Positions 8,968-38,166 of a stretch of 64,000 nucleotides of DNA are shown in pieces. Position 1 is the first letter of the stretch; every line of letters starts with the position of its first letter. The translations under genes and the position numbers were made by a program. This DNA comes from Actinomycetes bacterium (GTDB lineage Bacteria > Actinomycetota > Coriobacteriia > Coriobacteriales > UBA8131): assembly GCA_009787085.1 (NCBI GenBank), contig WRGR01000045.1, forward strand, positions 75 to 64,074. The letters run 5' to 3'. The notes under the pieces were generated by a model that had not been told where the DNA came from, made no database searches, and saw only the letters and a list, made by a program, of their open reading frames with translations.

Positions 8968-9190
8968 AGAAGTGCTGCCCTGTGCCCATGCTCGTCAAAA
9001 GCTTGGCCAAAATGTTTCTCTATGTTAACCACGTAATCCCGGAAAGTTAGGTATGCGGCATAAAGGGCTCGATCATCAGGGGCGCGCCCAATGCCTCGAA
9101 CAGCACACGCTGTCGCCCCGGCAGGTTGCTTAAAAGGTTGCGGCGGCTGGTCTGAAGCACGATCACGCTTGAGGAATTAGACCTTCTGGC

Positions 9191-12387
<3,197 letters not shown>

Positions 12388-16148: not shown

Positions 16149-16218
16149 CGGCGGCGGTCAAGCCACTGGGCGCCCCCCTACGTCACGGCGGCGGTCAAGC
16201 CACTGGGCGCCCCCCTAC
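16149..16218. repeat. 33-bp perfect direct repeat (period 37 bp) spanning the stop codon of the histidine kinase gene
   Basis: CGGCGGCGGTCAAGCCACTGGGCGCCCCCCTAC occurs at 16149-16181 and 16186-16218. The second copy contains the kinase stop (16215-16217) plus 29 nt of 3' flank. The mogA 3' end (GGCGGCGGCCACTGAG, about 16089-16105) resembles the first part of the unit. Confidence 0.9.
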
Positions 16219-18023
16219 ATCATCACATAAAGCGAAACCATGAAGACACCGTTGGCGGCCTCGATCTTCATCGAACCGTCATAGCGCTCGACAATCGTCT
16301 GCACCGAAGACAGGCCAATGCCTCGCCCCGGACGCTTACGGGAGTAGAAGCTGTTGTCTTGGCGCCGATAGTAGCCATCGAAGCTGTTGTCAACGGTCAG
16401 AGTCAGGCGACGGGCAGGAGCTTGGCAACGCATACGCACAAAGCGTTTCGACTCCGGCAAAAACGCCGTAGCCTCGATGGCATTCTCAAAGAGGTTGCCG
16501 AAGATGATGCTGATATCGCTCTCCGAAACTGCACCCAGCTCAGCGGGAACTACCAACTGCAGGTCGGTATGGATGTTATACTCCGCTGCCATAGCCATGT
16601 AGTGTGAGAGCACGGCGTTGACTACAAAGTTGTCGGTTAGCAACATCAAGCTCAAGTTCGGGGCCGCGCCAGCGATCTGGTCGATATATTCAAGCGCCTC
16701 GTCAGTGTCGCCGTCTTTCAGATAGTCGCGTAGAACAAACAGCTGGTGGCGCATATCGTGGCGCATCGCCCGCACTTTCTCCGTCGACTCCGTCAGGTTG
16801 TGATATAAGGTGCGCTGTCTGTCCAAATTCTGGCTGATCACCTCGACCTCCATAGCCAGCTCTTTGGAGCGCTGGGCGTCTTCGAAGGTCTGCCGAACAG
16901 TACGCCAGCCTAAAATTGCCAGCCAGAAGATGAAAACGAACAGGCCGACCTGTAAAATATTGATACCCAAAGGTGCCTTAACATACATCGTATTCACCAA
17001 GTCGGCGATGACAAACAGCACTAGCAGCACACAGGGGAAGACCAAGCGCTTGGCGATCGGATTATGAAGCACATAGTATTCGTAAATCACATCTGCCATA
17101 AAAATTACTAAATAGAACGGTATATATATGCGCACTGCCACCCGGCTAACGGAAAAAGGCAACACCCCAGTAAGGTGCAAGACGATCAGCAGGATGGCTA
17201 AAACACAGGCTGTAGCGGAAAGGATACGCAGTAAGGGAAAGCCTTCCGAACGCATGATGATCTCCCCAAAAGAGATCATCGGTGCCACAATAGACAATAG
17301 GCCGATAAAACCTAATGAGTAAAGCACCGATGCGAACGGTATGAGATAAATCACCAGATCATTGATGCAAAAACTCCAGATGCCGGCAGCCAGACAAAAC
17401 GCTCCCAGAAAACCAAAAGCCATAGCCGGCGGCATGCTCCTAGTGATCAACAAGGAGATGCCGACCAGCGAGGCCCCACCGAACAGCAAAATCAAGGCCA
17501 GTGCCAGCGGCAAGCCGTTGGCGGTGAACAGCTGAAAGGAAAGCATGGTCGGATCACCAACATAAAATACCGGCAGCTCCAAAGAGTGTGCCGATTCGGA
17601 CAAGGTAAACTCAAAACGCAGTGTGCGCTCAGCGTTATTGTTAGGCAAAGCCACTGTGCCGACATACGGCGGTGGCGTTCCTTGGAAGTCCGGATAAGTC
17701 CCCTTCTGACCGGGTTGAGCCACTACATTATCATCGACATATATTTTCAGGGAAGCGTCCTGCACTTTGTAAAGCAAGCTGTCATGCTTATAGCTGCTAA
17801 TGTTGCTGATCAATACCAGCTTGTCCCCCGGCCGCAGTCCCTCCACCACAGTTGGCAGACGAGCCTCTTGGGTGCTGCCGTTCGGCAACATCAAAACACC
17901 GCTGCGAATAGAGCGCAGTTCGCCGGAGCTGTACAGAACATTGCTCCGGCTTGAAAGCGCAAAGCCCACAATCAGGCTCAACAGCACCAGCATCAACACC
18001 ACATAGGCAAGCATGGTTACCAT
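16215..18023 (-). CDS. Sensor histidine kinase (GHKL, HATPase_c_5 / LytTR-partner type) with a large extracytoplasmic domain and a multi-TM block
   Basis: 602 aa. It has an N-terminal TM, about 150 aa of non-hydrophobic sequence, about 7 TM helices, the phospho-acceptor region VRAMRHDMRHQLFVL, and the ATPase motifs NLFENAIEA ... GRGIGLSSVQTIVERYDGSM. Confidence 0.85.
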   Translation of the reverse strand: MVTMLAYVVLMLVLLSLIVGFALSSRSNVLYSSGELRSIRSGVLMLPNGSTQEARLPTVVEGLRPGDKLVLISNISSYKHDSLLYKVQDASLKIYVDDNVVAQPGQKGTYPDFQGTPPPYVGTVALPNNNAERTLRFEFTLSESAHSLELPVFYVGDPTMLSFQLFTANGLPLALALILLFGGASLVGISLLITRSMPPAMAFGFLGAFCLAAGIWSFCINDLVIYLIPFASVLYSLGFIGLLSIVAPMISFGEIIMRSEGFPLLRILSATACVLAILLIVLHLTGVLPFSVSRVAVRIYIPFYLVIFMADVIYEYYVLHNPIAKRLVFPCVLLVLFVIADLVNTMYVKAPLGINILQVGLFVFIFWLAILGWRTVRQTFEDAQRSKELAMEVEVISQNLDRQRTLYHNLTESTEKVRAMRHDMRHQLFVLRDYLKDGDTDEALEYIDQIAGAAPNLSLMLLTDNFVVNAVLSHYMAMAAEYNIHTDLQLVVPAELGAVSESDISIIFGNLFENAIEATAFLPESKRFVRMRCQAPARRLTLTVDNSFDGYYRRQDNSFYSRKRPGRGIGLSSVQTIVERYDGSMKIEAANGVFMVSLYVMM

Positions 18024-18105
18024 GCTGATAAAACCCCGTCTGCCACCTCTGTTCCGTACCCTTTTTATCGGATCATTCCCTGCCGTTGTTCATTCCCCCA
18101 TCAAA

Positions 18106-18846
18106 TCAATCACTGTCACTTCTCACACTGTTAAACAAGTAGTCCTCGTAGGCATGCTTAATTTTGCGATGGTTCTTCACTGTAATGTAGGCAATAGCAC
18201 CGTTGTCCATCACAAAATCGTCCCCCAGCTCGTCCACATGATCCAAGTTCACGACATATGAGCGATGGGAGCGCAGAAAACGAGGCGCCGGGAGCAGCTG
18301 TTCTAGGGAGTCTATAGTCATGGTCGTGGAATGGCAGGCATCCACGGTGTTGATCAAGGATCGACGGTTACGGGACTCGATGTAGATGATGTCGGCCAAG
18401 GGGATGATAATCGGAACGTTCTCAGAGGCGATGGCCAAGGTAGCACCTTGCCGCTTGTCACGCTTCATCGCCGCCAAATCCAAAGCCTCGCTGACATCGG
18501 TTGCAACCAAGGGTTTTAAGAGGTATTTATAGGCATTCAAACGGTAACCCTCGCGAGTGAAATCCTCACTGGTGGTGGTGAAGACCACAACCACCTGACT
18601 GTCTATCGCCCGGATGCGTTCGGTTGTCTCAATGCCATTCAGATCCCCCATAAAGACATCCATAAATACCAAATCGTAAAGACCCTTGTCAAAAGATGAC
18701 AAAAGAGCCTCACCAGACTTGAAGTGATCCACAGAAAGGATACTGTCATTCCCACCTAACATGGCCTTCAAGGTATCAGCGTCAGACTGCGTGTCCTCGG
18801 CTATCGCAATACGCAAAACCGAACGATCAACAGTAGCATCTGACAT
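18106..18846 (-). CDS. LytR/AlgR-family response regulator (REC + LytTR DNA-binding domain)
   Basis: 246 aa. The REC domain is LRIAIAEDTQSDADTL...YDLVFMDVFMGDLNGIE. The C-terminal LytTR region is IIYIESRNRRSLINTVDACH...FLRSHRSYVVNLDHV. Confidence 0.9.
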   Translation of the reverse strand: MSDATVDRSVLRIAIAEDTQSDADTLKAMLGGNDSILSVDHFKSGEALLSSFDKGLYDLVFMDVFMGDLNGIETTERIRAIDSQVVVVFTTTSEDFTREGYRLNAYKYLLKPLVATDVSEALDLAAMKRDKRQGATLAIASENVPIIIPLADIIYIESRNRRSLINTVDACHSTTMTIDSLEQLLPAPRFLRSHRSYVVNLDHVDELGDDFVMDNGAIAYITVKNHRKIKHAYEDYLFNSVRSDSD

Positions 18847-20192: not shown

Positions 20193-21800
20193 TCACTGCA
20201 TAATAGCAGCTCCAACAAAAGCAGCGAATAGGGGGTGTGGCCGGGTTGGACGGCTTTTGAACTCTGGGTGCCCCTGACAGGCTACAAACCAAGGATGCTC
20301 AGCAAGCTCGATCATCTCCACCAGCCGGGCATCGGGGGACAGACCGCTGATACAAAGGCCAGCCGCCGCCAAACGGTCACGAAAAGCATTGTTCACCTCA
20401 TAGCGATGCCGGTGCCGCTCGTAGACGACCGGCTCGCCATACACCGCATAAGAATTGGTATCCGGAGTCAGGCAGCAAGGATAGGCACCGAGGCGCATGG
20501 TACCACCCTTGTCGTCGATGTCTTCTTGATCGGGCATTAGATCGATCACCGGGTAGGCCAGGCTGCCGCCCAGATCGTTGGCGAACTCGGCAGAGTTGGC
20601 ACCCTCCAAGCCGGCCACGTTGCGGGCAAACTCCACCACTGCGGCATGAAGACCAAGGCAGATGCCAAGGTAGGGAACTTTTTGCTGACGCGCATAGCCA
20701 ACCGCCGCAACCTTGCCCTCGAATGCCCGCGAACCAAAGCCGCCGGGTACCAAAATGCCCTGCATTCCGGCCAAGGTCTGCTCCACACCCGCGCTCTTCA
20801 AAGTCTCCCCGTCGATCAGGCGGACGTTCACTCGACAAGAATGGGCGACCCCAGCATGCTCCAAAGCCTCGACTATCGAGAGATAGGCATCAGGCAAGGA
20901 GACATACTTGCCAACTACAGCGATATCCACTGACTTTGTCAAAGACTGCCGTGCCGTCAAATAGCCCTGCCAAGCAGTGAGGTCGATCTCCTGCGGCTCA
21001 AGGTTCAAGGTGCTCAAGACCTTCAGGTCGAAACTTTGGCGATAGAGGTCTATGGGCACCTGGTAGATGCTCTCCGCGTCTTGGCAGTTGATCACATGGT
21101 CGGCCTTGACATCACAGAACAGGGCGATTTTCTCCCGCACTTTGTCGGTCACCTCGTGGTCAGAGCGGCAGACGATGAAATCCGGCTGAACGCCAATGGA
21201 ACGCAGCTCTTTCACGGAGTGCTGGGTAGGCTTGGTCTTCACCTCGTGGGCAGCAGCAATGTAGGGCACCAAGGTGACATGGATGAAGATCACGTCACCC
21301 AAAGGCTTGCTCATCTTGAACTGCCGCGCCGCCTCGATGAAGGGCAACGACTCAATGTCGCCGATGGTGCCGCCGATCTCGGTAATGACGATATCGGCAG
21401 CGCTCTGGCCGGCAATGCGGGTCAAGCGGTCACAGATGGCGTTGGTCATATGCGGGATAACCTGGACTGTGCCGCCCAAGAAGTCACCGCGCCGCTCCCG
21501 GGCGATCAGGCTTTGGTAGATGGAGCCAGCAGTGAAGTTGCTCTCCCGGGTTAGGTTCTCGTCGATAAAACGCTCGTAATGGCCGAGGTCGAGGTCGCCC
21601 TCATGGCCGTCGTCGGTCACAAACACCTCGCCGTGCTGAAAGGGGCTCATAGTGCCGGGGTCGACATTCAAGTAGGGGTCGGCCTTCTGCAGCGTCACCT
21701 TGTAGCCCCGAGACTTCAACAGGCGGCCAAGAGAGGCGGCGGTGATGCCTTTCCCCAAAGATGAAACTACACCACCAGTGACAAAGATATGTTTAGCCAT
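20193..21800 (-). CDS. pyrG: CTP synthase
   Basis: MAKHIFVTGGVVSSLGKGITAASLGRLLKSRGYKV...DPYLNVDPGTMSPFQHGEVFVTDDG. The glutaminase domain is GILVPGGFG...PYLGICLGLH...HRHRYEVN. Confidence 0.97.
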   Translation of the reverse strand: MAKHIFVTGGVVSSLGKGITAASLGRLLKSRGYKVTLQKADPYLNVDPGTMSPFQHGEVFVTDDGHEGDLDLGHYERFIDENLTRESNFTAGSIYQSLIARERRGDFLGGTVQVIPHMTNAICDRLTRIAGQSAADIVITEIGGTIGDIESLPFIEAARQFKMSKPLGDVIFIHVTLVPYIAAAHEVKTKPTQHSVKELRSIGVQPDFIVCRSDHEVTDKVREKIALFCDVKADHVINCQDAESIYQVPIDLYRQSFDLKVLSTLNLEPQEIDLTAWQGYLTARQSLTKSVDIAVVGKYVSLPDAYLSIVEALEHAGVAHSCRVNVRLIDGETLKSAGVEQTLAGMQGILVPGGFGSRAFEGKVAAVGYARQQKVPYLGICLGLHAAVVEFARNVAGLEGANSAEFANDLGGSLAYPVIDLMPDQEDIDDKGGTMRLGAYPCCLTPDTNSYAVYGEPVVYERHRHRYEVNNAFRDRLAAAGLCISGLSPDARLVEMIELAEHPWFVACQGHPEFKSRPTRPHPLFAAFVGAAIMQ

Positions 21801-22716: not shown

Positions 22717-22817
22717 AGGGAACCGCTCACGGACACTCGCTCATAGTGGATCGGATTCCTTCCATAAAGAATGCTTTGGGAAGCTGGAGAATATCGCTTC
22801 AATGGTATCATAAGCAG

Positions 22818-25800
22818 ATGTATTCAACTCGGCTCTACAAAACACTGGTCGTCCTGATTGCCATGGTTCTGACCCATGGGATCGTCACTGCGTCCATATT
22901 TGCCTTAAATGCCAGCCCGAATGCGGCGGTGACGGGGCAGACGGCAAACAGGGCATCGCTTTGGCCCACGGCTAAGCCTGTGCCCGGGACGGCCGCCGGG
23001 GCGCAGGCCCAAACACCAACCGGGACAGCTGCCGGGGCACCGCAGCTCTCAAGGGCCGCCGATGCCCTCAGCTTCATGAATATCGGTACAGCAGCGCCCA
23101 GCCTAGCGGTTATCCCACCGGCCAGTGCGCCAGCGGCCGCCAGCCCGGCGGCGGCCACCCTGACGGTTGACCGGAAGGCGGCTGCGGAAAGCACACACCC
23201 CTTGGCGATCATCTACCTCCCTGGTTTGGACTTCAACAGTATCAACATCCAGAATGCACCCCATATCTACCAGCTGATCAGTGACTCAGCAGTTGCCAAC
23301 CTCAGCGCACCGCTACCGGGAGGCCGTGAGCAGCTGCTCAGCAACCCACATATCGCTTGGTACTCGCTGCCAGACAACTTAAGCCTAGCCGCCGTCGATG
23401 CCTCCTTGCCGGAGGCTATGAGCACCTTCGACGAACGCTGGCTGGTCGTTTTGGTCAGCGACCCTTACCTTAAGGCCAAGTCCACTGCGCCGCCCAGCCG
23501 TGCGCTAACATCAGTTGTCATCCATGGCAACGACCTCAAGGGCTACCTGACCTCTGAAAGCAGCCATCGCCAAGGCCTGATTTGCGCCAACGACCTAGAC
23601 TTGCTCGCACGGCACTTGAATTTCGAGCCAGACGACCCCAATTACTCAGATGCCAGCATCGAGGGCTTGGAGACCTTGGATAACACAGCGACACGACTGG
23701 GCAACCTAGCCCAAGAGCGGCAAGTTATCCAATCGACCTATGACTCCAAGACCATCGGCGGCCTTGGTTTCATGAGCCTCTTTTTCGTCGCCTTAGGCAT
23801 CTCCTGCATTCTGATCTACCTCAATTACCGCGGCCGCATCGCCTTCCGCCGGGTGCTGATTCCCCTAGTCCGAGTTATCTGGATCGTCGTCTTGAGCTTT
23901 CCGGCAGCCAGCTTCCTGATGTTCTTGTTCGTGCCGCCCATGCCGTCTAGCCAAACAATGCTCGGCCTCTGTGGCATTTGGATGTTTGTGATCACTGTCG
24001 GAGCCTTGATTTTGGGCAAGATCCGCAAATGGGTGTATTCGATCATCGCCCTTTTCATCTTGTCCATCTTAGTGATTGTGGTCGGCCAACTCTGCGGCGG
24101 GCCGCTGGCAATGCCCGGATACATGACCTATGACATCTTAGAGGGTTCTCGCTACTATGGCATGGGCAACGAGCAAGGCGCGATGCTCTTCGGGTCATGG
24201 ATCACCCTCACCGGGCTTTTGATCAACCGCTTCGGTGACCTGCGCGGTGTCAGGGCCCTCAAGCTATGGGGCTTCCCGCTGGGCTCGGCCGCTCTCTTGA
24301 TCATGTCCAGCAGCCCTTGGCTGGGTGCCAGCTTCGGCCAGTTGATCTGGGGGACCACTGGTTGCTTTGTTGCTTGGTGGCTGTTCAACAACCGCCGTAT
24401 TAATCCTTTGTTTATCGCCATCTCAGTGGTAGCCTCTTTCACGGTAGCCGTAGGGGTACTGTATTTGGACGTAATGCTGAACCCGCTATCCCATATGTCT
24501 TGGGTCATCCCGGCTATGGAGCAGGGCTTTCCAAACTTGGCCATAGCTTTGCTGCACGAGGTCTGGAAAGTGTCTTTGAACACCATGACCGCCCATGTTC
24601 CGGCTGTCGCATTGGTGTTTGCCGCAGCCATAGTAATCTTTTTGATAGTGCTGCTGATACGCAAACCGGGGACTTATCGGGAGTTCTGGCAGCGCAACCC
24701 GGCTTTTCGCAGCGCCTACGGGGTTTGTTTGTTCATCTCATTGATCGCTTTTTGCTTGGAGGATTCCGGGGTCTTCACCCCAGCGGTACTTTTGATCTAC
24801 CCCGTCTCCTGTTTGATATGGCTGATCGCAGATTTGCACCGCTGGCATTTACGTACCTTGGCAGCCGGTGACGAGGAGCCGAGCATTCGCCAAATGCAGC
24901 AAGAGGCTATCGCCAAGGAGACATCAACCCATGCTGCTGCGCTGAACCGCCCGCCACAGCCAACGGCAGCAGTGCTTGCCCAAGAGGAACAGCGCTCCGA
25001 AACAACAGCCAGCATGATCGACCAGTCTTTGCAGGTTATCCTCGGCAGCTCGGCTACCGCAACCGCCGACCCGGCGGCCGGGTCGGCGGCGACAACGGGC
25101 GGCAAGCGCCAAGCAGAGTTCGAGTTACGGGCAAAGGCCGAACTATCGGCAGCCATTCGAGCTGCAACCGAGTTGGACACAAGGCTTAAGGCAACGGCGG
25201 GCAGGCCGGCCGAGGCCACCGTCCAAGCAGCGATCACTGTAGCTGATGGCGGCGAGGCCAAAACAGCAGGTGGCCAAAACAGCGGTCATGAGATATCGAC
25301 GATTGTTGACGAAATATTGAAGTCGGCCGGAAGCAAAGAGCCTACCGAAAGCGAAGCTGCGAGCAAGGACGCCGAGACGACCGGGGACGAAAAGTCTGCC
25401 TTGATCGCAAATCCGGACGACTTGCTGCCAAGTGCGGCAGCATCGGCAGACCAGCAGCCCTCAGTCAGGCGCTCTACCGCCTTGATGTCTATGATCACGC
25501 TCGTCTCCCGAGTCACCGGCTTTGCCCGCACTTGGGCGATGGCTTTCGCCCTTGGCAACACCTTGCTCACCTCGGCCTACAACATCGCCAACGGCCTGCC
25601 TAACCAGATTTTCGAGCTGGTCGCCGGGGGTATTCTCTCCTCGGTGTTCTTGCCCATCTACTTGGCACAAAGGGAGAAACGCGGCAAGCAGGCCGCCAGC
25701 GACTATGCCTCCAACCTCTTCTCTTTGGGCTTGGTGGTACTCGGTGCCATCTCCATCCTAGCCACCGTCTTCGCTCCTCAGGTGGTGTTCACCCAAACCT

Positions 25801-27203
25801 TCCTAAACCAGAACTCCAACCAAGAGGCAGTCCAGCTGGCCTGCTTCTTCTTCCGCTTCTTCGCCATCCAGATATTCTTCTACGGCATCGGCGGGCTTTT
25901 GAACAGCCTGCTCAATGCCCATCGGGAGTTCCTCTGGTCGTCGATCGGGCCGGTCTTCAACAATATCGTGGTGGTCGCGGTGATGTTCAGCTACCCCTTC
26001 TTGGCCGCCACCAACCCGCAGCTAGCAATGACCTGGCTGGCTGTCGGCACATCATTGGGTGTGGTGGCGATGTTTGCCATCCAGCTGCCGGCGCTGATCC
26101 GCCTGAAGATCCCCTTGCGCTTTCGTATCAACCTCCGCGACCCGGCCTTACGTGAAAGCCTTGTGCTGGCGGTGCCGGTGACGGTCTTCGTGGTCATCAA
26201 TGTCATAGTGGCCAGCGTGCTGAACGCAGTTGCCCTGCACACCTCGCCAGAGGGGCCGTCGGCCATCGCCTATGCCTGGCTCTGGTACCAGCTGCCCTAT
26301 GGGGTGATCGCCGTAGCCCTCTCCACAGCCCTGTTCACCGAGATGAGCGAGGCCAGCGCCGCTGAGAACTGGACACAGTTGCGTGCCAATATTCGCATGG
26401 GGCTGCGCACTACCCTGTTCGCCATCATCCCGCTGGCCTTGATGGTGCTGGTGTTGGCCAATCAGTTGGTCGGCCTGTACAACTTCGGCAAGTTCACCCA
26501 CGATGACGTACTGGTGGTTGCCCAGGTGCTCCGCTATTGGTGCTTGGCGCTGCCCTTCTTTGCCGCCTACCGTTTCATCTACCGCGTCTTCAGCTCACTG
26601 CGCGACCTGAAAGCCTTTATCGCCATCGATGCCATCGGGCGGCTGGTGCAGGTTTTCCTCTATGGCTTTTTGACCACTGGCTTCGGCCTTTGGCCGGGGC
26701 TTGGCCTAGTTGGCCTGCCACTGGCCGATGCCATCAGCTACGTCTTGCTTTGTGCAGCGATGCTGGTATTGCTGTATCGGAAGGTCGGCCACTACGGTTT
26801 AACTAAGATATTCTTGGACGGCCTGAAGGTCACCCTAGCGGCTCTGGCGGCCGCAGCGCTGCCCTTCTTCCTAACCGCACTGGGCGGGCCTGACCCGAAC
26901 ATACTGGTTTCGCTGGCCAAGGCCTGTCTCTGGGGTACTTTTATTATGCTGGCCTATTTCCTTTGCTGCCGACTGCTGCGGGTTCCGGAGGTGGCACTGG
27001 TCGGCCAGCTGGCAAAGCGTTTCAAGCAACTGGCAAGGCAGCCTGGCGGTGATCAGGACGGCAGCTCGGATGATGGCTTAGGAGACAAACAAAAGGGCTA
27101 TCCAAACGGCAAGCAAAACGGCAAATCAGCAGGGGAACCGGCAAGGAAGGGGGCTCATGAGCATGAGTGCGAAGATGAACGTGAGCGAGATCGACAAAGA
27201 TGA
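22818..27203 (+). CDS. murJ: Lipid II flippase MurJ fused to a large N-terminal uncharacterised exported/polytopic module
   Basis: This is a single uninterrupted frame. The track opens it at GTG 22746; the first ATG, at 22818, gives MYSTRLYKT followed by a TM. The last roughly 560 aa begin RRSTALMSMITLVSRVTGFARTWAMAFALGNTLLTSAYNIANGLPNQIFELVAGGILSSVFLPIY, the canonical MurJ N-terminus, and carry about 14 TM segments. The preceding roughly 900 aa comprise a signal-anchor, an Ala/Pro-rich stretch, a soluble domain of about 250 aa, about 12 TM segments and an acidic/Ala-rich linker. Confidence 0.85.
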   Translation: MYSTRLYKTLVVLIAMVLTHGIVTASIFALNASPNAAVTGQTANRASLWPTAKPVPGTAAGAQAQTPTGTAAGAPQLSRAADALSFMNIGTAAPSLAVIPPASAPAAASPAAATLTVDRKAAAESTHPLAIIYLPGLDFNSINIQNAPHIYQLISDSAVANLSAPLPGGREQLLSNPHIAWYSLPDNLSLAAVDASLPEAMSTFDERWLVVLVSDPYLKAKSTAPPSRALTSVVIHGNDLKGYLTSESSHRQGLICANDLDLLARHLNFEPDDPNYSDASIEGLETLDNTATRLGNLAQERQVIQSTYDSKTIGGLGFMSLFFVALGISCILIYLNYRGRIAFRRVLIPLVRVIWIVVLSFPAASFLMFLFVPPMPSSQTMLGLCGIWMFVITVGALILGKIRKWVYSIIALFILSILVIVVGQLCGGPLAMPGYMTYDILEGSRYYGMGNEQGAMLFGSWITLTGLLINRFGDLRGVRALKLWGFPLGSAALLIMSSSPWLGASFGQLIWGTTGCFVAWWLFNNRRINPLFIAISVVASFTVAVGVLYLDVMLNPLSHMSWVIPAMEQGFPNLAIALLHEVWKVSLNTMTAHVPAVALVFAAAIVIFLIVLLIRKPGTYREFWQRNPAFRSAYGVCLFISLIAFCLEDSGVFTPAVLLIYPVSCLIWLIADLHRWHLRTLAAGDEEPSIRQMQQEAIAKETSTHAAALNRPPQPTAAVLAQEEQRSETTASMIDQSLQVILGSSATATADPAAGSAATTGGKRQAEFELRAKAELSAAIRAATELDTRLKATAGRPAEATVQAAITVADGGEAKTAGGQNSGHEISTIVDEILKSAGSKEPTESEAASKDAETTGDEKSALIANPDDLLPSAAASADQQPSVRRSTALMSMITLVSRVTGFARTWAMAFALGNTLLTSAYNIANGLPNQIFELVAGGILSSVFLPIYLAQREKRGKQAASDYASNLFSLGLVVLGAISILATVFAPQVVFTQTFLNQNSNQEAVQLACFFFRFFAIQIFFYGIGGLLNSLLNAHREFLWSSIGPVFNNIVVVAVMFSYPFLAATNPQLAMTWLAVGTSLGVVAMFAIQLPALIRLKIPLRFRINLRDPALRESLVLAVPVTVFVVINVIVASVLNAVALHTSPEGPSAIAYAWLWYQLPYGVIAVALSTALFTEMSEASAAENWTQLRANIRMGLRTTLFAIIPLALMVLVLANQLVGLYNFGKFTHDDVLVVAQVLRYWCLALPFFAAYRFIYRVFSSLRDLKAFIAIDAIGRLVQVFLYGFLTTGFGLWPGLGLVGLPLADAISYVLLCAAMLVLLYRKVGHYGLTKIFLDGLKVTLAALAAAALPFFLTALGGPDPNILVSLAKACLWGTFIMLAYFLCCRLLRVPEVALVGQLAKRFKQLARQPGGDQDGSSDDGLGDKQKGYPNGKQNGKSAGEPARKGAHEHECEDERERDRQR

Positions 27204-28014
27204 TGCGGCAGACACAAACCCAAGCTTGAACCGGAGTTTGAGCGCGAACTCCGGCAAACGCTGCCATGTGCTAATACCGGCCTACAATGAGGAGCGGATC
27301 ATCGCCACAACCGTCGAGGCCTTGAGCAGCTTGGCTGGCCAACCCGACATTTGGGTGATCGACGACGGCAGCAAAGATGCCACGGCTGAGCTGGCGCAAC
27401 GGGCCGGGGCGAATGTTTGCTCCAGCCAACGTCGTTTGGGCAAGGGTGCCGCCTTGACCTTGGGCATAGAGCGGCTGACGGCAGCGATAGCCGACGGCGG
27501 CGAGGCCGGCGGCTCCAACCCCAGTGTCAATGGCGGCAGAAGCAGTGCCAGCAGCAGGGTTGCCAGCGCCAGCGATATCGTGCTGTTGATCGATGCCGAC
27601 CTAGGGGCAAGCGCCGCCAAGGTCGGCCCGTTGATTGAAGCAATAGCCCAAGGACAAGCCGACCTGGCTATCGCTGTACTGCCCAGCCCACCGGACACCG
27701 GTGGCTTCGGCTTGGTGAAGAGCCTCGGCAAGCGCGCCATCCGAAATCTTGGTGGCGGCTTTGAGTCCCGAGCACCGCTCAGCGGCCAGCGGGCGTTGAC
27801 GCTTGACACCATGAGGCAGCTGATGCCCCTAGCAGACGGCTACGGCGTTGAGGTTGTAATGACCATCCGAGCGCTGCAGGCCGGAATGCGGGTACTGGAG
27901 CTGCCAATGGCTCTCCGCCATCGCTTCACAGGGCGCGACCTAGCCGGCTTTCTGCACCGTGGCCGCCAATACCTCGACCTCCGAGCAGCATTGAGGCAGA
28001 TGGGGAAAGGCTAG
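27157..28014 (+). CDS. Glycosyltransferase family 2 protein
   Basis: CHVLIPAYNEERIIATTVEALSS...IWVIDDGSKDATAELA...LLIDADL is the GT-A fold with its DxD motif. The SD is AAGGAAGGGGG. It overlaps the murJ tail by 47 nt. Confidence 0.75.
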   Translation: MSMSAKMNVSEIDKDDAADTNPSLNRSLSANSGKRCHVLIPAYNEERIIATTVEALSSLAGQPDIWVIDDGSKDATAELAQRAGANVCSSQRRLGKGAALTLGIERLTAAIADGGEAGGSNPSVNGGRSSASSRVASASDIVLLIDADLGASAAKVGPLIEAIAQGQADLAIAVLPSPPDTGGFGLVKSLGKRAIRNLGGGFESRAPLSGQRALTLDTMRQLMPLADGYGVEVVMTIRALQAGMRVLELPMALRHRFTGRDLAGFLHRGRQYLDLRAALRQMGKG

Positions 28015-30023: not shown

Positions 30024-32864
30024 CTATCGGCCTTGCCCAAGTTCCGGGTAACGGCGGATAAGCTCATCCACTATCCGTTGACAGTTGTTGCGGTCTTGGT
30101 AGGGGAAAAAGCGCTTTGTCCTGGCTCGGAACTCCTCGCCCATCTGCGGGTTGTCCAACAGCCTGATCAGACCACTGATAGTTGCCTGGTAGTCCCGGGC
30201 AACCTGACCAAAGCCGTCCCGGTCGAAATCGAAATAGCCGGCCGGCGCATGCATGGTGTAAAAGTCCTCTTCATCAAACTGGATATAAAAACAGGCCTTA
30301 TTCAGATAGGCGAAGTCGAAGAGTATCGACGAGTAATCGGTCACAGCGATTCTGGCCTTCGACACCCACTCGTGGTTGTTGTAGCTGGCATCGGAGAAAA
30401 GAACTGCTTCGTCGGTGAGGTTGAAGTCGCGTTGGTTCGGCTTCATCAAGGGGTGGAGGGCAAACACCAGTTTGAAGCCAGTCTGATGCAACTTGTTGAT
30501 AAGCTCCGGGTCGTTCAGCAGTCGGTCATAGAAACGAAAGAACTCAGAATCCCTAAACAACGGGTTGTACGATCGCTTCCCCGTCTCCAAGCCAGTCAGG
30601 TAACGCCGCCAAGTCGGAGCGACCAACAAGACGTTCTCCTGCATGCTGTTGTCCAAAAGATCAAAGCGGGGGAATCCCAACAGTTTGACCTCATTTTGCC
30701 GATAGCCGTATTTGTCACTGATCAGGTCGTGATACTCGGGTAGGTTTCCTGAAACGTATAGATGTATATTCTTTAAATCCTTGCGCAGATTGTGCGAGTA
30801 ATCAAAAGGCAACATGCCATGGTTCAGATACACATAGTCAAACTGCTGTAGATTCCAGTAAAGTTCGGAGAGGTTCAGAGGGGCAAGATAATTGAAACCG
30901 TTATAACTCGAAATCAGTGTCTTGGCCTTCAAGAAAATTCTTTGTTCCAGCTTTGATCCCAGGGGCAGCATCAAAAAGCCTTCTCGCTTAAGCCTCTGAT
31001 AATCCGGGCAAGAATCAGAGAGCCGGAAATAGATGCGGTGATGCCGCCCGCTGACACCGACATGTTCCTTAAGCTTCCGATACAATGCCTCGCCGTTGTT
31101 ATTGGCACCGGACATGGCATCTGAGACGATGAGACACACACTGCGCTTCACTCCATATGTCAGAACATGTGCTGACCGCTGGCGAAAAGCCCGCCATGCC
31201 TGAACGGCAGTTATCACCTTAGCTGCGTTTTTTCGGCGGTACCAAACAGACAGCAAGTTAGCAGTCAAAAACAATACTTCACGGCCTAGGGCATTTGACC
31301 GCGAGAAACGGGCAACTCGCAGCCCATCGCTAGTCCTTGTCAAAATATGCTTTCCTTGAATGCGATAGGTGCCGTTCTGAGCGATGTGGGCGAAAGCCCT
31401 AGCAAGGCGACTCCGCCTCTGCGTCATACTTCGGAAAAGCTCTCCTAGCCTCAATCGACTAATCAAACTGTAACCCAAACTGCCTTTCACGCCATGCCCC
31501 TCACCCCATTGATATTGCACTCGGACAGAACCCACGAAGTCTGAAGGCAAACTAAAGCGCCGCCCTTCAGCTTGCAATACTTCGCCTCCAAAAAAGTACT
31601 TCGCAGCATGGGGATAGCGAAAATGTTCCAGCTCTTGGCAAGCCACCTGCTGGCAACAGCCATCCCGTTCACAAACAACATCTGTTCGAAAACCGAAGGA
31701 GGGCAAATCAATGGGCGGCAACATCAACTCGACTTCCAGAGAACCACCATCACAGCCGTTGACCGTCATTACCGTAACTTCTTGCTTTGCCACGTTGAAC
31801 AGCTCCAAGCCATGGTGAAACACCGCTCCATCACTGCTAAGCTCCACTTGGCCACGCCACTGACCGCCTTCCTTGACGTCGATCAGAGACAGCTTCTCAG
31901 AAAGACTGAACCCCTTGATCCCAGTGATCACAATATCTTCGATATCAGCCAAAAACAACCTGAACTGCGCTCTGATCCTCTGGCAAACACTCTCAGGAAC
32001 CGAAGCAAACATCGCTCGATTAAAAATATAGCTGCTATTGATATGCAAAAACAGGTATTGCAAATACCTCGAAATTCCCCCTCGCTCAAGCTTGCTCTGA
32101 TCCCACAAGTCTTGCCAGATATCGGTCAAGCCGTGCTCCAACTGCTCGACGCTCAACAGCTTGAGCTTTTCGACAAAACGCCGGTTCCCATCAGTCCAAC
32201 GCCGATACAAAGCCGCATGAGTATAATAAAGTTGCATATTGCTATGCAAGAGGCTGCGGACAATAAAATCAATATCAGAGTAAGGATAAGGATAAGGGTC
32301 TTCCTTGAAAACCAGCCCCTCAATTGCCTTGCGGGCGAACATCAGAGAGCTGACATCGATTTGCGGACACTTGAAGCATCTATCTAAGTCGGTCAGACGA
32401 TTGGCTTTGAAGGCATCACGGGATGAGTGAAATTTTTGCGTACCACCTCGGAAACGAACATGAAAGGCCACCGACCCCAGCTCCGGATACTTCTCGAAAA
32501 GCTCCAAGCCAGTGCGAAACATACTGGCAGCAACCACATCCCTAGCGCCCACAAAAGCGATACAGTCCCCCTTGGCAACACCTAAGCCGATGTTTCGGGC
32601 AGCGGCAACGCTAACCCCCGGTGCTTTGAGCAGCTCGATATTAGACGGATAGTGGCTCGCCCATTCTTCAGCCAAACTAATGGTTTTTGCGGTGCTAGCA
32701 ACACTTATCAATATCAGCTGAACCCGCTCGTTAAATCCAATATCCTGGCCAAAAAGGCTGGCCAGGCATTCTTCGAAGGCAACCGAGAAACCTCTCGCTG
32801 AACCATCATCGTCGATCACCGTTATACAGCTAATGCTGGGCGCATCCCTAGCCTCAGGGGACAT
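30024..32864 (-). CDS. Bifunctional glycosyltransferase family 2 / CDP-glycerol glycerophosphotransferase (TagF-like) protein
   Basis: 946 aa. The N-terminal GT-A-like region is ISCITVIDDDGS...LILISVAS...VSVAAARNIGL...IAFVGARD. The C-terminal TagF-type region is YVYLNHGMLPFDYSHNL...LVAPTWRRYL...FALHPLMK...VTDYSSILFDFAYLNKACFYIQFD. Confidence 0.8.
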   Translation of the reverse strand: MSPEARDAPSISCITVIDDDGSARGFSVAFEECLASLFGQDIGFNERVQLILISVASTAKTISLAEEWASHYPSNIELLKAPGVSVAAARNIGLGVAKGDCIAFVGARDVVAASMFRTGLELFEKYPELGSVAFHVRFRGGTQKFHSSRDAFKANRLTDLDRCFKCPQIDVSSLMFARKAIEGLVFKEDPYPYPYSDIDFIVRSLLHSNMQLYYTHAALYRRWTDGNRRFVEKLKLLSVEQLEHGLTDIWQDLWDQSKLERGGISRYLQYLFLHINSSYIFNRAMFASVPESVCQRIRAQFRLFLADIEDIVITGIKGFSLSEKLSLIDVKEGGQWRGQVELSSDGAVFHHGLELFNVAKQEVTVMTVNGCDGGSLEVELMLPPIDLPSFGFRTDVVCERDGCCQQVACQELEHFRYPHAAKYFFGGEVLQAEGRRFSLPSDFVGSVRVQYQWGEGHGVKGSLGYSLISRLRLGELFRSMTQRRSRLARAFAHIAQNGTYRIQGKHILTRTSDGLRVARFSRSNALGREVLFLTANLLSVWYRRKNAAKVITAVQAWRAFRQRSAHVLTYGVKRSVCLIVSDAMSGANNNGEALYRKLKEHVGVSGRHHRIYFRLSDSCPDYQRLKREGFLMLPLGSKLEQRIFLKAKTLISSYNGFNYLAPLNLSELYWNLQQFDYVYLNHGMLPFDYSHNLRKDLKNIHLYVSGNLPEYHDLISDKYGYRQNEVKLLGFPRFDLLDNSMQENVLLVAPTWRRYLTGLETGKRSYNPLFRDSEFFRFYDRLLNDPELINKLHQTGFKLVFALHPLMKPNQRDFNLTDEAVLFSDASYNNHEWVSKARIAVTDYSSILFDFAYLNKACFYIQFDEEDFYTMHAPAGYFDFDRDGFGQVARDYQATISGLIRLLDNPQMGEEFRARTKRFFPYQDRNNCQRIVDELIRRYPELGQGR

Positions 32865-32870
32865 ACTGGG

Positions 32871-35087
32871 TCACCTACACTTCAGTATCTTCTTTGCCCG
32901 ACGGGGCAGGAAAGTAATGGCTCGACCCAGTTTAAAGGAGATTGATTTGCGCAAGCATTCGATCTCCTGCTCTTTTGCCAACAACTGCTTGGTCAGACTG
33001 GCATTCTTGGCCTCAACTTTGGACAGCTCCTTGCGCAAGCCCGTCTGCTGCTTGATCTGTGCATAGACCTCCGAAACCAGCTTGCCATACAACCGGGTCG
33101 GCCTGAATAACACCGGATAAGGAACAAAAAGCCACTCGCAGCCCGCCTCGTCGGGCTGCTGATAATAAGAATGCACCCTCAACGCCTGGTCGGCAACCCG
33201 GAACCACTGATTAGTGAGACGCGCACAGGCACCGAGCGTTGAAATTGATGGATCATAGTGTTTGACAACCCTCTCCAACAACGCATTTGCCGAGGTTATC
33301 AAGCTGAAGGCAGTCTCTTGGGCACATCCGGGGCTAAACACCAAGTCGCGTTGTTTTGGCTGACGTCTGACCAAGGCATTGGCAAACAGCAAGCTAGCCT
33401 GACTGGAAAGCATGCTTTCGAAGCAGAACAGTGGGCCAGAATCAATCACGGCCTCAGAGAAGCGCAACCTAGCATTCAACAGATGCTGGCGCCTAGAGAT
33501 CTGTTGGGATGTTCGGCCAAAAAAGTCCCCCCTACGAACGCTGAGCGCAAACAGCTCGTCACCCGACCATGGTTTCAGCGGATAGTCATGGACAACAGCA
33601 TTATGATCTTTTAGATAACACAGAAGACGTTGCTGCTCAACTGAGCCAAAGTCTTCAGCAGCCGCAAAGAAGACGGTGTCAACCGCATGCTTGTCAGCCA
33701 ACTCATATAGTTTGCGCAAGGCATCATGGTGCAACGAATAGCTATCATCCAGAAAGTAAAGGTACTCGCCCCGAGACTGGGCTATCGCCTGGTTGTAAGC
33801 AGCAGCCACACTGGCTCCCGGCATTTGCAGCAACGTCAGACGCCCGTCCCGACCAGCAAGCTGCTCAACTGCTGACCGATCAGCCTCGGGCTGACCACAG
33901 TCGATACAGATCACCTCGATCTCCTGCAAGCTCTGCCCTAAGACATCGATGATTCGAGTGGCAGCACCAGTAGCTCCACCAGCCATGGCCATAGCCACAG
34001 ATACCAGTGGTGTGGCGCACTCTATCACCTCAGAAGCTAGTGGCTCTACGGCACTAGCAGCATCCAGCAATGGTGTGCCGAGCCTCTGATCGACCTCACC
34101 CTGACCAGAGTCGCCTACCGGAACAGCCGGATGGGAAATGTCAATACAGTGCTCGATCACCTCCCGATATAGATTAAACCATCTGTATTGGCGCAAATCA
34201 CCAAGGATCGAAAGATCCATAGAGGCCAAGAAGGAGAACAGGCCACCGACTATCCGGCGACGCTCAGCACCTTTGGCCTTATGAAACCAAGATAGACAGT
34301 CAGACAGCTCGATCTCCATCACCAGCGATCGAATACGCTCATCAAAGGCCTGCGACAGCCGCAACACCGAACGTATCGAATCGTAGTGAACCTCAAAATT
34401 GGCGAAACGCCTAGAGACTAACGAGCCATCCATGTTGCAGCGGTAGTAGATCAAAGGCTCAGACAACGCCCCAACACGGTTCGAGCAGAAAAGGGATGCA
34501 AAATAAAATGATCGGTCATTGATGACGATATAAGACGGGAAACGCAGCTGATTTTGAATTAAGAATTGCCGTCGATAGACCTTCGACCAAGGGGTGACAT
34601 TGCTCCAAACCCAAAACTCCGGCTCATCAAGCAGCGCGCCGACATGTAAGCCGTGATACTCGGGCAGCGACCGATAGGCAGTGCCTTTGGCGATCATCCG
34701 ACCGGTCATCATATCCACCCGCCTGTAGGCAAAGACTAAGAAGTCCAAGCCATGTTCGGCCATCAGAGGAATAGTACGATCATAGATACCTTGATCAACC
34801 CAGTCGTCGGCATCCAAGAAGTGGACATATTCGCCTTGGGCGATATCCAAGCCGACGTTACGGGCTACGCCAGCATACTGGTTTTTCTGGGTCAGGACAC
34901 GCAGCCGCGTGTCCTGTTGCTCAAAAGCGCGTAGGATAGCCAAGCTGGTATCGGTCGAGCCGTCATCAACACAAATCACCTCGATGTCTGCAACAGGCTG
35001 ACGCAATACGCTGTTCAGGCAGTCCTCCAAGTACTTCTCAGCGTTATACACCGGAATAATCACTGATACTAGCGGTGATGTACCCAT
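32871..35087 (-). CDS. Protein with two tandem glycosyltransferase family 2 domains and a C-terminal coiled-coil/amphipathic tail
   Basis: The start was trimmed to M33 of the ORF (ATG 35087, SD GGGGA). Domain 1 is VSVIIPVYNAEKYLEDCLNSVLRQ...EVICVDDGSTD...HFLDADD. Domain 2 is VSVAMAMAGG...IEVICIDCGQ...YLYFLDDSY. The tail is KELSKVEAKNASLTKQLLAKEQEIECLRKS. Confidence 0.8.
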   Translation of the reverse strand: MGTSPLVSVIIPVYNAEKYLEDCLNSVLRQPVADIEVICVDDGSTDTSLAILRAFEQQDTRLRVLTQKNQYAGVARNVGLDIAQGEYVHFLDADDWVDQGIYDRTIPLMAEHGLDFLVFAYRRVDMMTGRMIAKGTAYRSLPEYHGLHVGALLDEPEFWVWSNVTPWSKVYRRQFLIQNQLRFPSYIVINDRSFYFASLFCSNRVGALSEPLIYYRCNMDGSLVSRRFANFEVHYDSIRSVLRLSQAFDERIRSLVMEIELSDCLSWFHKAKGAERRRIVGGLFSFLASMDLSILGDLRQYRWFNLYREVIEHCIDISHPAVPVGDSGQGEVDQRLGTPLLDAASAVEPLASEVIECATPLVSVAMAMAGGATGAATRIIDVLGQSLQEIEVICIDCGQPEADRSAVEQLAGRDGRLTLLQMPGASVAAAYNQAIAQSRGEYLYFLDDSYSLHHDALRKLYELADKHAVDTVFFAAAEDFGSVEQQRLLCYLKDHNAVVHDYPLKPWSGDELFALSVRRGDFFGRTSQQISRRQHLLNARLRFSEAVIDSGPLFCFESMLSSQASLLFANALVRRQPKQRDLVFSPGCAQETAFSLITSANALLERVVKHYDPSISTLGACARLTNQWFRVADQALRVHSYYQQPDEAGCEWLFVPYPVLFRPTRLYGKLVSEVYAQIKQQTGLRKELSKVEAKNASLTKQLLAKEQEIECLRKSISFKLGRAITFLPRRAKKILKCR

Positions 35088-35115
35088 TTTTTTCCCCGCA
35101 GTATAGACAGTCGGT

Positions 35116-35610
35116 TTAGAATGATAACCCCTCGTCCAAGCGCTCTTTAATACCAGTGGTCGAAATACCGTCAGTGCGATCAAGAAAAACCAACTCGCAA
35201 ATATCTGACAACATCATAAAACGATTGTCGTCTTTCCAATCCGCGCCCATCACCACGGTATCGACATGATAGCGCAAGACATCATCGCGTTTCTGCCCCC
35301 AGGTATCCTCGGGGATCACGAGATCCACATAACGAATGGCCTTGAGCATCTCGCAACGCAGAGCATAGGGATAAAACGCCTCTTTCCCCTTCAAGGCATT
35401 AAACTTGTCAGTTGAAAGTGCAACTATCAAATAGTCTCCGAGTGCCGCCGCCCGCCGTAAAAGCCGGATGTGCCCATAGTGCAAGAGATCATAAGTTCCA
35501 TAAGTCAACACACGGCGAAACCCGAGCCCCTGCTGGACATCGGCGGCAGATGACCCGATCTCAGGCCACACTCTTTCCTTGTCACCAAAACTGCTCGTAC
35601 TCATCTGCAC
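35116..35610 (-). CDS. tagD: Glycerol-3-phosphate cytidylyltransferase (TagD/TarD)
   Basis: VLTYGTYDLLHYGHIRLLRRAAALGDYLIVALSTDKFNALKGK ... RYVDLVIPE...W contains the HxGH motif and the TagD core. About 30 extra N-terminal residues make the start uncertain. Confidence 0.88.
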   Translation of the reverse strand: MQMSTSSFGDKERVWPEIGSSAADVQQGLGFRRVLTYGTYDLLHYGHIRLLRRAAALGDYLIVALSTDKFNALKGKEAFYPYALRCEMLKAIRYVDLVIPEDTWGQKRDDVLRYHVDTVVMGADWKDDNRFMMLSDICELVFLDRTDGISTTGIKERLDEGLSF

Positions 35611-35745
35611 TCATTCGTCCTTAAGCTGCTATCAAAGCTACCAATTGCGGGAAACGGACAATCAATCGTGACATATTCCGGCTCTAAAGGCAAGACTCCC
35701 GACATATACCAGGAAAGTGCCCGCAAGCAACAATCTAAGCATCCT

Positions 35746-37116: not shown

Positions 37117-37353
37117 CCATGTCCCTCGGATCGTCTAAACTACACGGACAAACAACAAATGCATGATCTTTGGCCGTTGCGTCACAGAAACTATGTTTCT
37201 AAATGCTAATATTTTAGACTAAAACTCTTGTATCGAACACTATGATCTGTTGGTGTTGGCGCTGTTTTCATGCCGTTGTTTGATCAAGGGAGTGATCCGC
37301 AAAGCTGTCTGGAGAAAACCGGGGGGACCCGGCATAGGAGCCCGAAATTTGCA

Positions 37354-38166
37354 ATGTTCTCAACTCTAAAGGAAATCATCTTGGCAAACTTCACCCGTTT
37401 GCCTTCGTTTTGGAGCTATGGTCTGCATGATCTAGGCAAACGGAACCGAGATACCGTTCTTGGGTGGTTCTGGATATTTGCTCGTCCATTGATTTACATT
37501 CTGGCCTTTGGCATGGCTTTAGAGATTGGCTTTAGGCATTCCGACAGCCTAAACTCTACAAAGCCTTATCTGCTCTGGCTAGCCAGCGGCATCTACCCTT
37601 GGTTTTTCATCGGTGATATCTTCGGTCGCAGCGCCAACGCCTTCAAAGCCCAATCCAAGCTGATCAAGCTGAACTGCTTTCCATTGGCTTCGATTCCCAG
37701 TGTCAACCTGATGTCCAACTTGATCGTCTTTTTGGTCACCTTTGCGGCAATGATGCTGGTAGCTGTGCCATTTGGGGCTTATCCCAGTATCTATTGGCTC
37801 CAAGTCCCATTAATCATCGCCTTGATGCTGTTGTTTTACTATTGCTTCTCTTTGATGGTATCTTGCTTCTCTGCCTTAAGCCATGATTTCGCCAATCTGG
37901 TTAAAGTTCTCAGTACGCCGATGTTTTGGCTCTCTGGCATCCTTTTCGACACGTCACATATCTCCAATGTCGCTGTCAAGGTTTTTTTGATCATCAATCC
38001 TGTCACCTTTTTAGTCACCGCTTTCCGCGATGCCGTCTATTTCGGCAGATGGACATTCGTCGACTTGGGGCGTCTGCTGCCCTTCTTGCTTGTTGTCTTG
38101 ATCACCACTCTGATGGCTTGGCGCAACTATCATGCCTTGAAATCCGAGGTTCTGGATGCGATCTGA
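37354..38166 (+). CDS. tagG: ABC-2 type (TagG-like) glycopolymer export permease
   Basis: The start was trimmed to M29 of the ORF (AGGAG 13 nt upstream). The sequence is MFSTLKEIILANF...YGLHDLGKRNRDTVLGWFWIFARPLIYILAFG... with six TM segments, the pattern typical of TagG/ABC-2 permeases. Confidence 0.8.
   Translation: MFSTLKEIILANFTRLPSFWSYGLHDLGKRNRDTVLGWFWIFARPLIYILAFGMALEIGFRHSDSLNSTKPYLLWLASGIYPWFFIGDIFGRSANAFKAQSKLIKLNCFPLASIPSVNLMSNLIVFLVTFAAMMLVAVPFGAYPSIYWLQVPLIIALMLLFYYCFSLMVSCFSALSHDFANLVKVLSTPMFWLSGILFDTSHISNVAVKVFLIINPVTFLVTAFRDAVYFGRWTFVDLGRLLPFLLVVLITTLMAWRNYHALKSEVLDAI

Follow-up and report, generated by a model that had tools for sequence, protein, structure and literature searches.

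MurJ fused in frame to an N-terminal polytopic membrane module within a conserved four-gene cassette beside pyrG

The 64,000-nucleotide stretch analysed here (contig WRGR01000045.1 of assembly GCA_009787085.1, from a Coriobacteriia-like bacterium of the termite gut; hereafter the window) carries an open reading frame (ORF) in which the flippase MurJ is preceded by a polytopic membrane protein, hereafter the module. This ORF is a genuine, lineage-specific gene fusion, and the module, MurJ, a downstream family 2 glycosyltransferase (GT2) and a divergent gene for a PNPT-like (MraY/WecA-like) membrane protein form a conserved four-gene cassette beside the CTP synthase gene pyrG. MurJ is an essential flippase and an antibiotic target. 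The reading that joins these observations, with the module acting on a lipid-linked glycan flipped by MurJ, is in our estimation evenly balanced between right and wrong.

Results

The ORF is a genuine in-frame gene fusion

The ORF listing of the window contains a frame of 1485 codons with a GTG start (22746..27203, plus strand), which from its first ATG at 22818 encodes a protein of 1461 residues; the same protein with the same ATG start was called independently on a Logan assembly. A first-pass annotation of the window had described one frame of more than 1460 codons with MurJ beginning at about codon 905. Both statements hold, as 1461 codons follow from the ATG and the MurJ motif RRSTALMS begins at residue 884 (nt 25467), i.e. 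codon 908 of the GTG-started frame. The remaining parts that it had listed were recovered as well (Table 1): a signal-anchor (residues 8-30), an Ala/Pro-rich stretch (31-110), a soluble region (about 111-312), a linker of about 200 residues, which measures 204 aa between the HxWHLR and RRST motifs and is rich in Ala, Thr, Glu and Ser, and a charged tail overlapping a GT2 gene (PF00535) by 47 nt. The polytopic block that it had placed behind the soluble region is present (YYGMGNEQG at residue 446), but instead of about 12 transmembrane (TM) segments it has 11, or 12 when the anchor is included. Residues 1-880 have no match in Pfam or NCBIfam, so that curated models detect MurJ only, and fused relatives are named plain 'MurJ' at NCBI. 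A scan for promoters and terminators gave background level only.

Across 16,528 bp, including the whole ORF, the Logan assembly of SRR5247073 has the same sequence as the window (100% identity), and no stop or frameshift separates the halves. In the linker, 0 stops occur in the fusion frame versus 5 and 5 in the other two forward frames. In-frame fusion was also observed in nine other contigs (L003, L007, L008, L009, L010, L011, L012, L015 and L016), which amount to eight distinct sequences since L003 and L010 share one. The fused contigs derive from metagenome-assembled genomes (MAGs) of termite-gut Coriobacteriales and from UBA948, and the fusion is limited to one subclade. In a linker search, linkers of 62-168 aa were matched in seven fused homologues; these are of low complexity and mutually unrelated, with conserved ends. 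In UBA8131 (L002, the same as L013), the module is a separate gene (665 aa) whose stop overlaps the murJ start by 4 bp, and the N-terminal part of its MurJ gene shows homology to the linker seen in the fused L003/L010 form, which indicates that fusion and fission are recent and natural. Thus the proposal of the first-pass annotation, that MurJ is covalently joined to a second membrane protein of envelope biogenesis, is supported, and its suggestion that the module corresponds to a separate gene beside murJ in relatives agrees with UBA8131 and with 19 more distant Coriobacteriia/Actinomycetota contigs, in which module and murJ lie side by side in divergent orientation.

One might suspect a frameshift introduced by assembly or sequencing, or read-through of two truly separate genes, given that the halves are separate in UBA8131 and that the cassette is visibly frameshift-fragmented in several MAG contigs (L003, L038, L068). 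Such an artefact is very improbable, however, in view of the identical second assembly, the stop-free linker of 204 codons, and the in-frame fusions with non-identical linkers (where measured) in nine contigs of separate assemblies. The topology fits as well: the N-terminus of MurJ is cytoplasmic, and the predicted cytoplasmic C-terminus of the module suits being joined to it, by way of the disordered cytoplasmic linker that leads to TM1 of MurJ. As to the fragmented contigs, L003 has a frameshift near the MurJ C-terminus (8748-9260) and L010 contains the same fused protein intact (5419-9216); in L038 and L068 ('MFD' MAGs), the cassettes are broken over many frames. These breaks are probably indel errors of assembly rather than signs of pseudogenes.

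Module, MurJ, GT2 and PNPT-like gene are a conserved cassette

Hidden Markov models of the module, the 307-aa PNPT-like protein, the MurJ domain and the GT2 were compared with all six frames of the fetched loci. In the nine contigs of group A, to which the window belongs (module 40-47% identical), the PNPT-like gene on the minus strand is divergent from the module or module-MurJ gene on the plus strand, and in 8 of the 9 contigs the GT2 follows downstream on the plus strand. L007, L009 and L011 are fused, and no PNPT-like gene was seen in the part of these contigs that was covered. Group B (module about 24-34% identical) comprises 19 contigs of MAGs from other Coriobacteriia and Actinomycetota, with GT2 and MurJ genes on the minus strand and, divergent from them, module and PNPT-like genes on the plus strand. 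In group C (Bacillota, Nonomuraea, Microtetraspora), the module occurs without cassette partners, frequently as a tandem duplicate. Altogether, the PNPT-like gene adjoins the module in 30 distinct contigs besides the window, and the GT2 is conserved beside MurJ or the module in 28 distinct contigs. The gene pyrG adjoins murJ or the cassette in L003, L004, L084, L087, L088 and L089, and in the window it is overlapped by the PNPT-like gene by 8 nt; a Shine-Dalgarno-like GGAAGGGGG lies upstream of the GT2. The cassette was seen only in MAGs, one of which is labelled Slackia heliotrinireducens.

The divergent gene had been called MraY-like in the first-pass annotation, in line with the MraY/WecA-type motifs found in its product. 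GLxDD, NLxNLxDxRPGR and GDAGAN are invariant in 35 sequences, as are the residues D104-D105, N172/N175/D178 and D242-x-G-x-N246. These we take, by eye, to correspond to the MraY/WecA consensus (DD; NxxNxxDGxDG; GDxGS), with the second Asp of DGxDG replaced to give D178-L-R-P-G-R. The canonical PNPT motif NxxNxxDGxDG is absent from the window and the first 82 fetched loci. PF00953 is matched by 5 of the 35 homologues (41-55% identity; best E 3.6e-7), and several homologues are named GlcNAc-1-P transferase by JGI.

The fused MurJ stands at the position of the lineage murJ

The C-terminal half matches PF03023 (residues 908-1348, E 6.5e-71, 239.7 bits versus a cut-off of 27.4, model positions 1-429 of 451) and TIGR01695 (residues 883-1395, 261.5 bits versus a cut-off of 235.55, model positions 2-504 of 506). 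MurJ entries of the PDB were matched at E 1e-21 to 1e-26, and about 400 residues align to the solved MurJ of Escherichia coli. Of the cationic cavity residues of E. coli MurJ, the window protein keeps the equivalents of R18 and R24 but has F in place of R52 and L in place of R270. All 30 cassette MurJs and the standalone syntenic MurJs likewise keep R18 and R24 and replace R52 by F/Y and R270 by L/M/V/T. The replacements, being present in standalone MurJs too, are therefore a trait of the clade and not a mark of the fusion. MurJ of Staphylococcus aureus reportedly builds its cationic triad from non-aligned positions (preprint 10.64898/2026.06.21.733627), so that the R52 and R270 replacements alone are no argument against lipid II flipping. 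On both grounds, their loss was not accepted as evidence for a specialised paralogue not devoted to lipid II.

The closest relatives of the MurJ domain (60-67% identity) are standalone proteins of 500-560 aa, and the two closest relatives checked lack the module. In L088 (67% identity), L087 (63%) and L089 (43%; from a cluster of 266 sequences), murJ is found alone and divergent from pyrG, and no module, PNPT-like gene or cassette GT2 was detected in any frame within 8-9 kb. Downstream of murJ in L088 lie miaA and miaB, as in L003, the flanks of which are the same as those of the window. The fused MurJ occupies the conserved chromosomal position of the lineage murJ, with pyrG and murJ transcribed away from each other. 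This pair is the conserved core of the locus, and MurJ persists where the other three genes have been lost. As murJ stands alone beside pyrG in relatives, synteny suggests that the fused MurJ is probably the housekeeping flippase and that module, PNPT-like gene and GT2 are an accessory set.

The module belongs to a large family with a minimised ectodomain

The module is a member of a family of Gram-positive envelope proteins. A word-indexed search returned 10 relatives only, and an exhaustive profile search yielded 3266 cluster representatives (clusters at 50% identity) at E<=1e-3; stricter limits of 1e-10 and 1e-30 left 2234 and 473, respectively. Most members are 700-790 aa long. In a scan of GTDB species genomes, the family was found in Coriobacteriia, in other Actinomycetota (Nonomuraea, Microtetraspora, Acidimicrobiales) and in Bacillota (Romboutsia, Clostridium, Paenibacillus, Tissierella, Limnochordia). 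It thus occurs in the cultured genera Romboutsia, Paenibacillus and Nonomuraea, where cassette partners were not detected nearby. The closest homologue (P0001, 53% identity) is a standalone protein of 722 aa, encoded between an ABC transporter and a LysE gene (L001, 3631-5799) on an 8.7-kb contig without any cassette partner. Two tandem copies are present in L044, L047, L054 and L057, which belong to Romboutsia, Clostridium and one further genome of the Bacillota. The Romboutsia pair is flanked by alaS and ruvX and followed, three genes on, by an LCP gene; outside Romboutsia the neighbours are unrelated, and the contexts in Bacillota and Nonomuraea gave no functional clue. Identity of the module with Rv3909, encoded upstream of mycobacterial mviN, was considered and dropped, as Rv3909 is described not as polytopic but as a putative outer-membrane or exported protein (PMC6656915) and the genome scan gave no mycobacterial match.

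The module is no known accessory domain of MurJ. Pfam gave no significant match for the window module and 12 diverse relatives, NCBIfam gave none for the module part of the window protein and 10 relatives, and a PDB sequence search with module profiles gave none at E 0.001, with sub-threshold matches to the alkaline-phosphatase superfamily only. Sulfatase (PF00884), PF01663 and PigN (PF04987) were not matched by the window protein or the 12 relatives at the Pfam cut-offs. The relative P0061 has a weak PF01663 (Phosphodiest) match below the cut-off (E 4.7e-4), and an SGSH_C match among relatives reaches 29.6 bits versus a cut-off of 29.3, with no single stretch passing alone.

The fold was approached through AlphaFold2 (AF2) models. 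For the relative P0009, an alignment of 102 sequences gave a model with a predicted local distance difference test score (pLDDT) of 93 and a predicted template modelling score of 0.92. Foldseek returned 40 PDB matches at E<=1e-3, all with probability 1.00 and all of the alkaline-phosphatase superfamily (arylsulfatase A, sulfamidase, LtaP, NPP, PbgA/YejM and alkaline phosphatase, followed by LtaS at E 1.3e-3); its TM domain was covered by no PDB match. A model built for the window module (pLDDT 71.5) had no significant match in the PDB, its ectodomain matches being weak (E 0.36-1.5; phosphopentomutase, YejM). By these models, the soluble part of the module is predicted to be a minimised alkaline-phosphatase-superfamily fold. 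After strand beta-1, the position of the metal-binding Asp is Pro in 71 and Asp in 18 of 102 family sequences, and it is Pro in the window protein. The nucleophile position is poorly conserved across the family, and two segments of P0009, residues 79-233, which bear the nucleophile helix, and 243-264, are missing from the window protein; its ectodomain core counts about 140 residues versus a family median of 304.

Conserved residues of the module are predicted to face outward

According to the positive-inside rule, the module has 12 TM helices in total and both ends in the cytoplasm, in the order anchor, ectodomain and 11 TM helices. Over 107 divergent sequences, conservation is concentrated in two places, the last strand-helix unit of the ectodomain (S246, T249, which is Ser in the window protein, R251, G253 and D259) and the loops of the TM domain (Y438, R445-Y-Y-G-M-G-N-E452, P500-x-x-G-A-x-x-G507, D551, H559 and D649-S-G651). 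R445, G448 and N451 are conserved in 99% of the sequences. The positive-inside rule puts the RYYGMGNE, PxxGAxxG, H559 and EDSG motifs outside, and its outward loops hold a concentration of about 15 near-invariant residues, polar or Gly/Pro, among them the family-invariant polar residues R445, N451, E452, D551, H559, D649 and S650. The TM domain has no sequence-family match to Wzy_C, GT-C or SEDS proteins and no fold match to their solved members. Just before an outward loop, 85% of the family have an Asp (DQxxGxPL) that is replaced by Gly in the window protein (residue 423, nt 24084-24086) and in the group A consensus.

The same parts are fused in other orders

Fusions were counted among the top 150 module-family representatives and their listed cluster members. 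Besides module-MurJ (6), we found GT2-module (9), module-GT2-module (5), module-module (4) and MurJ-module-GT2-module (3 sequences, one cluster). To the last arrangement belongs P0061, a single protein of 2394 aa made up of MurJ, module, GT2 and a second module (L084, 8001-15185; JGI 3300036974). On this actinobacterial contig, the same four parts lie between steB and pyrG: tlyA, ppnK, recN, steA and steB(MctB) precede the fusion, and the PNPT-like gene and pyrG follow it. The surroundings are the classic actinobacterial recN-pyrG region, and the order of this fusion is independent of that in the window.

Features of the locus and the rest of the window

The coordinates of the fusion and its neighbours are collected in Table 1.

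Table 1. Layout of the fusion ORF and the adjoining cassette genes in the window.
Feature	Residues	Position (nt)	Strand	Basis
Whole fusion ORF (module, linker, MurJ, tail)	1461 aa	22818..27203	+	ORF call; independent assembly
Short cytoplasmic N-terminus and signal-anchor TM1	1-30 (anchor 8-30)	22818..22907	+	Hydropathy; AF2 helix 2-32; positive-inside count
Ala/Pro-rich disordered extracytoplasmic stretch	31-110	22908..23147	+	pLDDT <50 over residues 30-110
Predicted minimised, degenerate alkaline-phosphatase-superfamily ectodomain	111-312	23148..23753	+	Fold seen on relative P0009; matches of window model weak
Family motif SxS(T/S)HRxGxxxxxD, within ectodomain	246-259
11-TM domain of module	313-676	23754..24845	+	Hydropathy; AF2; topology; no match to solved structures
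Family-invariant RYYGMGNE, outward-facing loop	445-452	24150..24173	+	Alignments; positive-inside rule
Cytoplasmic low-complexity Ala/Thr/Glu/Ser-rich linker	677-883	24846..25466	+	Linker search; frame stops
MurJ (MOP-superfamily flippase) domain	884-1395	25467..27002	+	PF03023; TIGR01695; PDB MurJ matches
Charged C-terminal tail and stop, overlapping GT2 start	1396-1461	27003..27203	+
GT2 glycosyltransferase, cassette partner		27157..28014	+	PF00535, E 7.9e-18
PNPT-like (MraY/WecA-like) membrane protein, cassette partner	307 aa	21793..22716	-	Motifs; PF00953 matches of homologues
pyrG (CTP synthase), conserved locus anchor		20193..21800	-

Further downstream in the window lies a cluster of the wall-teichoic-acid type (30024-42483, with 37270-39022; 47120-49553; 50563-51873) with four TagF-like Glyphos_transf proteins, several GT2s and a TagG/TagH-like ABC-2 transporter, and an LCP ligase gene further on. 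The genes miaA and miaB are close downstream of the cassette GT2 in L003 and of murJ in L088; compared with these contigs, about 19 kb including this cluster are inserted between the window GT2 and miaA/miaB. Upstream (3438-5606 and 16215-18846), a bacteriocin-type ABC exporter with C39 peptidase is encoded, as are a response regulator of the LytTR type and a GHKL histidine kinase; in L003 and L087, the LytTR/GHKL pair shows synteny with the M20-pyrG-murJ block.

Discussion

The preferred reading of the cassette is a short pathway across the membrane. At the cytoplasmic face, the PNPT-like enzyme would prime polyprenyl phosphate and the GT2 would extend the primed lipid to a sugar unit linked to polyprenyl-(pyro)phosphate. 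The MurJ domain would flip this lipid-linked product, with flipping of lipid II probably retained as well. Outside, the module might handle the flipped glycan as a transferase, polymerase or ligase, thereby filling the slot of Wzy_C-type proteins in related clusters, and the fusion would be a 1:1 tether of the flippase to the next step. Counting for such a pathway, a related Coriobacteriia cluster in L085/L086 (5348-15402) has a PF00953 PNPT gene on the minus strand divergent from two GT2s, a MurJ (46% identical), a GT4 and a Wzy_C protein, so that Wzy_C stands where the module would be; DegT and Bac_transf genes are also present, and a MurJ-family gene of this type was seen on 165 contigs of up to 3.28 Mb. 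Similarly, the PSII locus of Clostridioides difficile has been interpreted as a Wzx/Wzy-type wall-glycopolymer pathway with an initiating transferase, glycosyltransferases (GTs), MviN, a polymerase and an LCP protein, and knock-down of mviN lowers surface PSII (PMC5065235).

Several observations weigh against this pathway. The TM domain of the module has no match among solved structures or curated families that would give it an assignable biochemical activity, and with an ectodomain that has no canonical catalytic residues a non-enzymatic role is equally compatible. The 307-aa PNPT-like protein of the window reached no Pfam threshold and matched nothing in the PDB, also in profile searches, and the nearest named NCBIfam relatives of the GT2 are polyprenyl-phosphate sugar synthases, all far below cut-offs. 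In the group A contig L014 (3231-7125), PNPT-like gene, module and GT2 are directly adjacent with MurJ neither between them nor nearby, so that the three accessory genes can stay together without murJ, and in L001 and in Bacillota such as Romboutsia the module has no cassette partner at all. The module is therefore not strictly dependent on an adjacent MurJ.

The main rival is a module that regulates or scaffolds the housekeeping lipid II flippase without catalysis of its own, in the manner of PbgA/YejM. Ectodomain and TM domain would then detect a lipid or glycan of the envelope and adjust MurJ activity or location, and the PNPT-like gene and GT2 would make the sensed ligand or be only loosely linked. 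The small ectodomain core of the window protein without metal-binding Asp and nucleophile helix and the PbgA/YejM ectodomains among the fold matches agree with this idea, as does the persistence of MurJ alone in close relatives, by which the module is dispensable for flipping. However, the near-invariant residues in the outward TM loops look more like an active or substrate site, the repeated fusion to GT2 and the tandem module-GT2-module proteins point to a biosynthetic line and not to a sensor, and many family members have no MurJ nearby; we consider a purely regulatory module doubtful. Less probable still is a phosphotransferase of the LtaS/EptA/PIG-N type, which would take a phospho-substituent or sugar-phosphate off a lipid donor and transfer it to lipid II, peptidoglycan or another polymer after flipping. 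Its appeal lies in the alkaline-phosphatase-superfamily fold with LtaS, LtaP and NPP among the matches, in the order TM1, ectodomain and multiple TM helices, which resembles PIG-N/Mcd4, in the marginal SGSH_C and weak Phosphodiest matches of relatives, and in the 18 of 102 members that retain the Asp after beta-1 together with an N-x-T-like segment. Against it stand the Pro at this position in the window protein and most relatives, the poorly conserved nucleophile position, whose whole segment the window protein has lost, and the absence of Sulfatase and PigN matches. Such a role is possible for the Asp-containing minority of the family and unlikely for the window protein.

Within the pathway reading, the boldest version is that the module represents a novel enzyme class that acts on the outer side, has a TM fold without counterpart in the PDB and polymerises or ligates polyprenyl-linked glycan at the MurJ exit. 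We put this forward tentatively, as a possibility that is less probable than its negation by a clear distance. If it were true, the module would be a functional counterpart of SEDS, Wzy or WaaL proteins, and PNPT-like protein, GT2, MurJ and module would be a previously unrecognised minimal assembly line for a wall polymer. If the module were only a regulator, it would still be a new MurJ-associated factor. In either case, a natural covalent tether names a candidate partner of MurJ, as do the independent fusions of the module to GT2 and, in another order, to MurJ. The family also marks an annotation gap, as 3266 clusters with about 15 near-invariant outward residues and a high-confidence model have no counterpart in Pfam, NCBIfam or the PDB. 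In the literature, we found no description of a module-MurJ fusion, the module family or the four-gene cassette; MurJ is known, and its N-terminal polytopic fusion, the partner family and the cassette appear to be undescribed.

Compared with known systems, the C-terminal half of the fusion is like MurJ/MviN in passing both family models, in keeping R18/R24 and in its syntenic place beside pyrG. A known fused form of MurJ is mycobacterial MviN with its C-terminal pseudokinase extension; unlike that extension, the one in the window is N-terminal, 883 residues long, polytopic and not kinase-like. LtaS/LtaP, EptA and PbgA/YejM, which act on envelope lipids or polymers, share with the module an extracytoplasmic alkaline-phosphatase-fold domain on a polytopic membrane domain. 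In LtaS, EptA and PbgA, however, 5 TM helices precede the ectodomain and the module has the reverse order; moreover, the module has no PF00884 match, the window protein lacks the metal-binding Asp and the nucleophile, and the TM domain is unmatched. Owing to the reversed order, the missing catalytic residues and the unmatched TM domain, the module was not filed in these families. The eukaryotic GPI ethanolamine-phosphate transferases PIG-N/Mcd4, PIG-O and PIG-G consist of one N-terminal TM helix, a luminal/extracytoplasmic alkaline-phosphatase-fold domain and a block of about 10-14 TM helices. The predicted overall architecture of the module is similar, but it has no detectable sequence relation to them and has lost the catalytic residues.

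From the Wzx/Wzy-type pathways for wall glycopolymers, the cassette differs in that its flippase is a true MurJ and not Wzx, that its polytopic partner shows neither the signature nor a fold match of Wzy_C, GT-C or SEDS proteins, and that it contains one GT only and no LCP gene in the conserved set. It resembles them in its putative PNPT-like initiator, its GT2, its flippase of the MOP family and a polytopic protein with conserved residues that face outward. Taken together, the cassette may be an assembly line for a lipid-linked glycan with a MOP flippase, one component of which is possibly new in kind.

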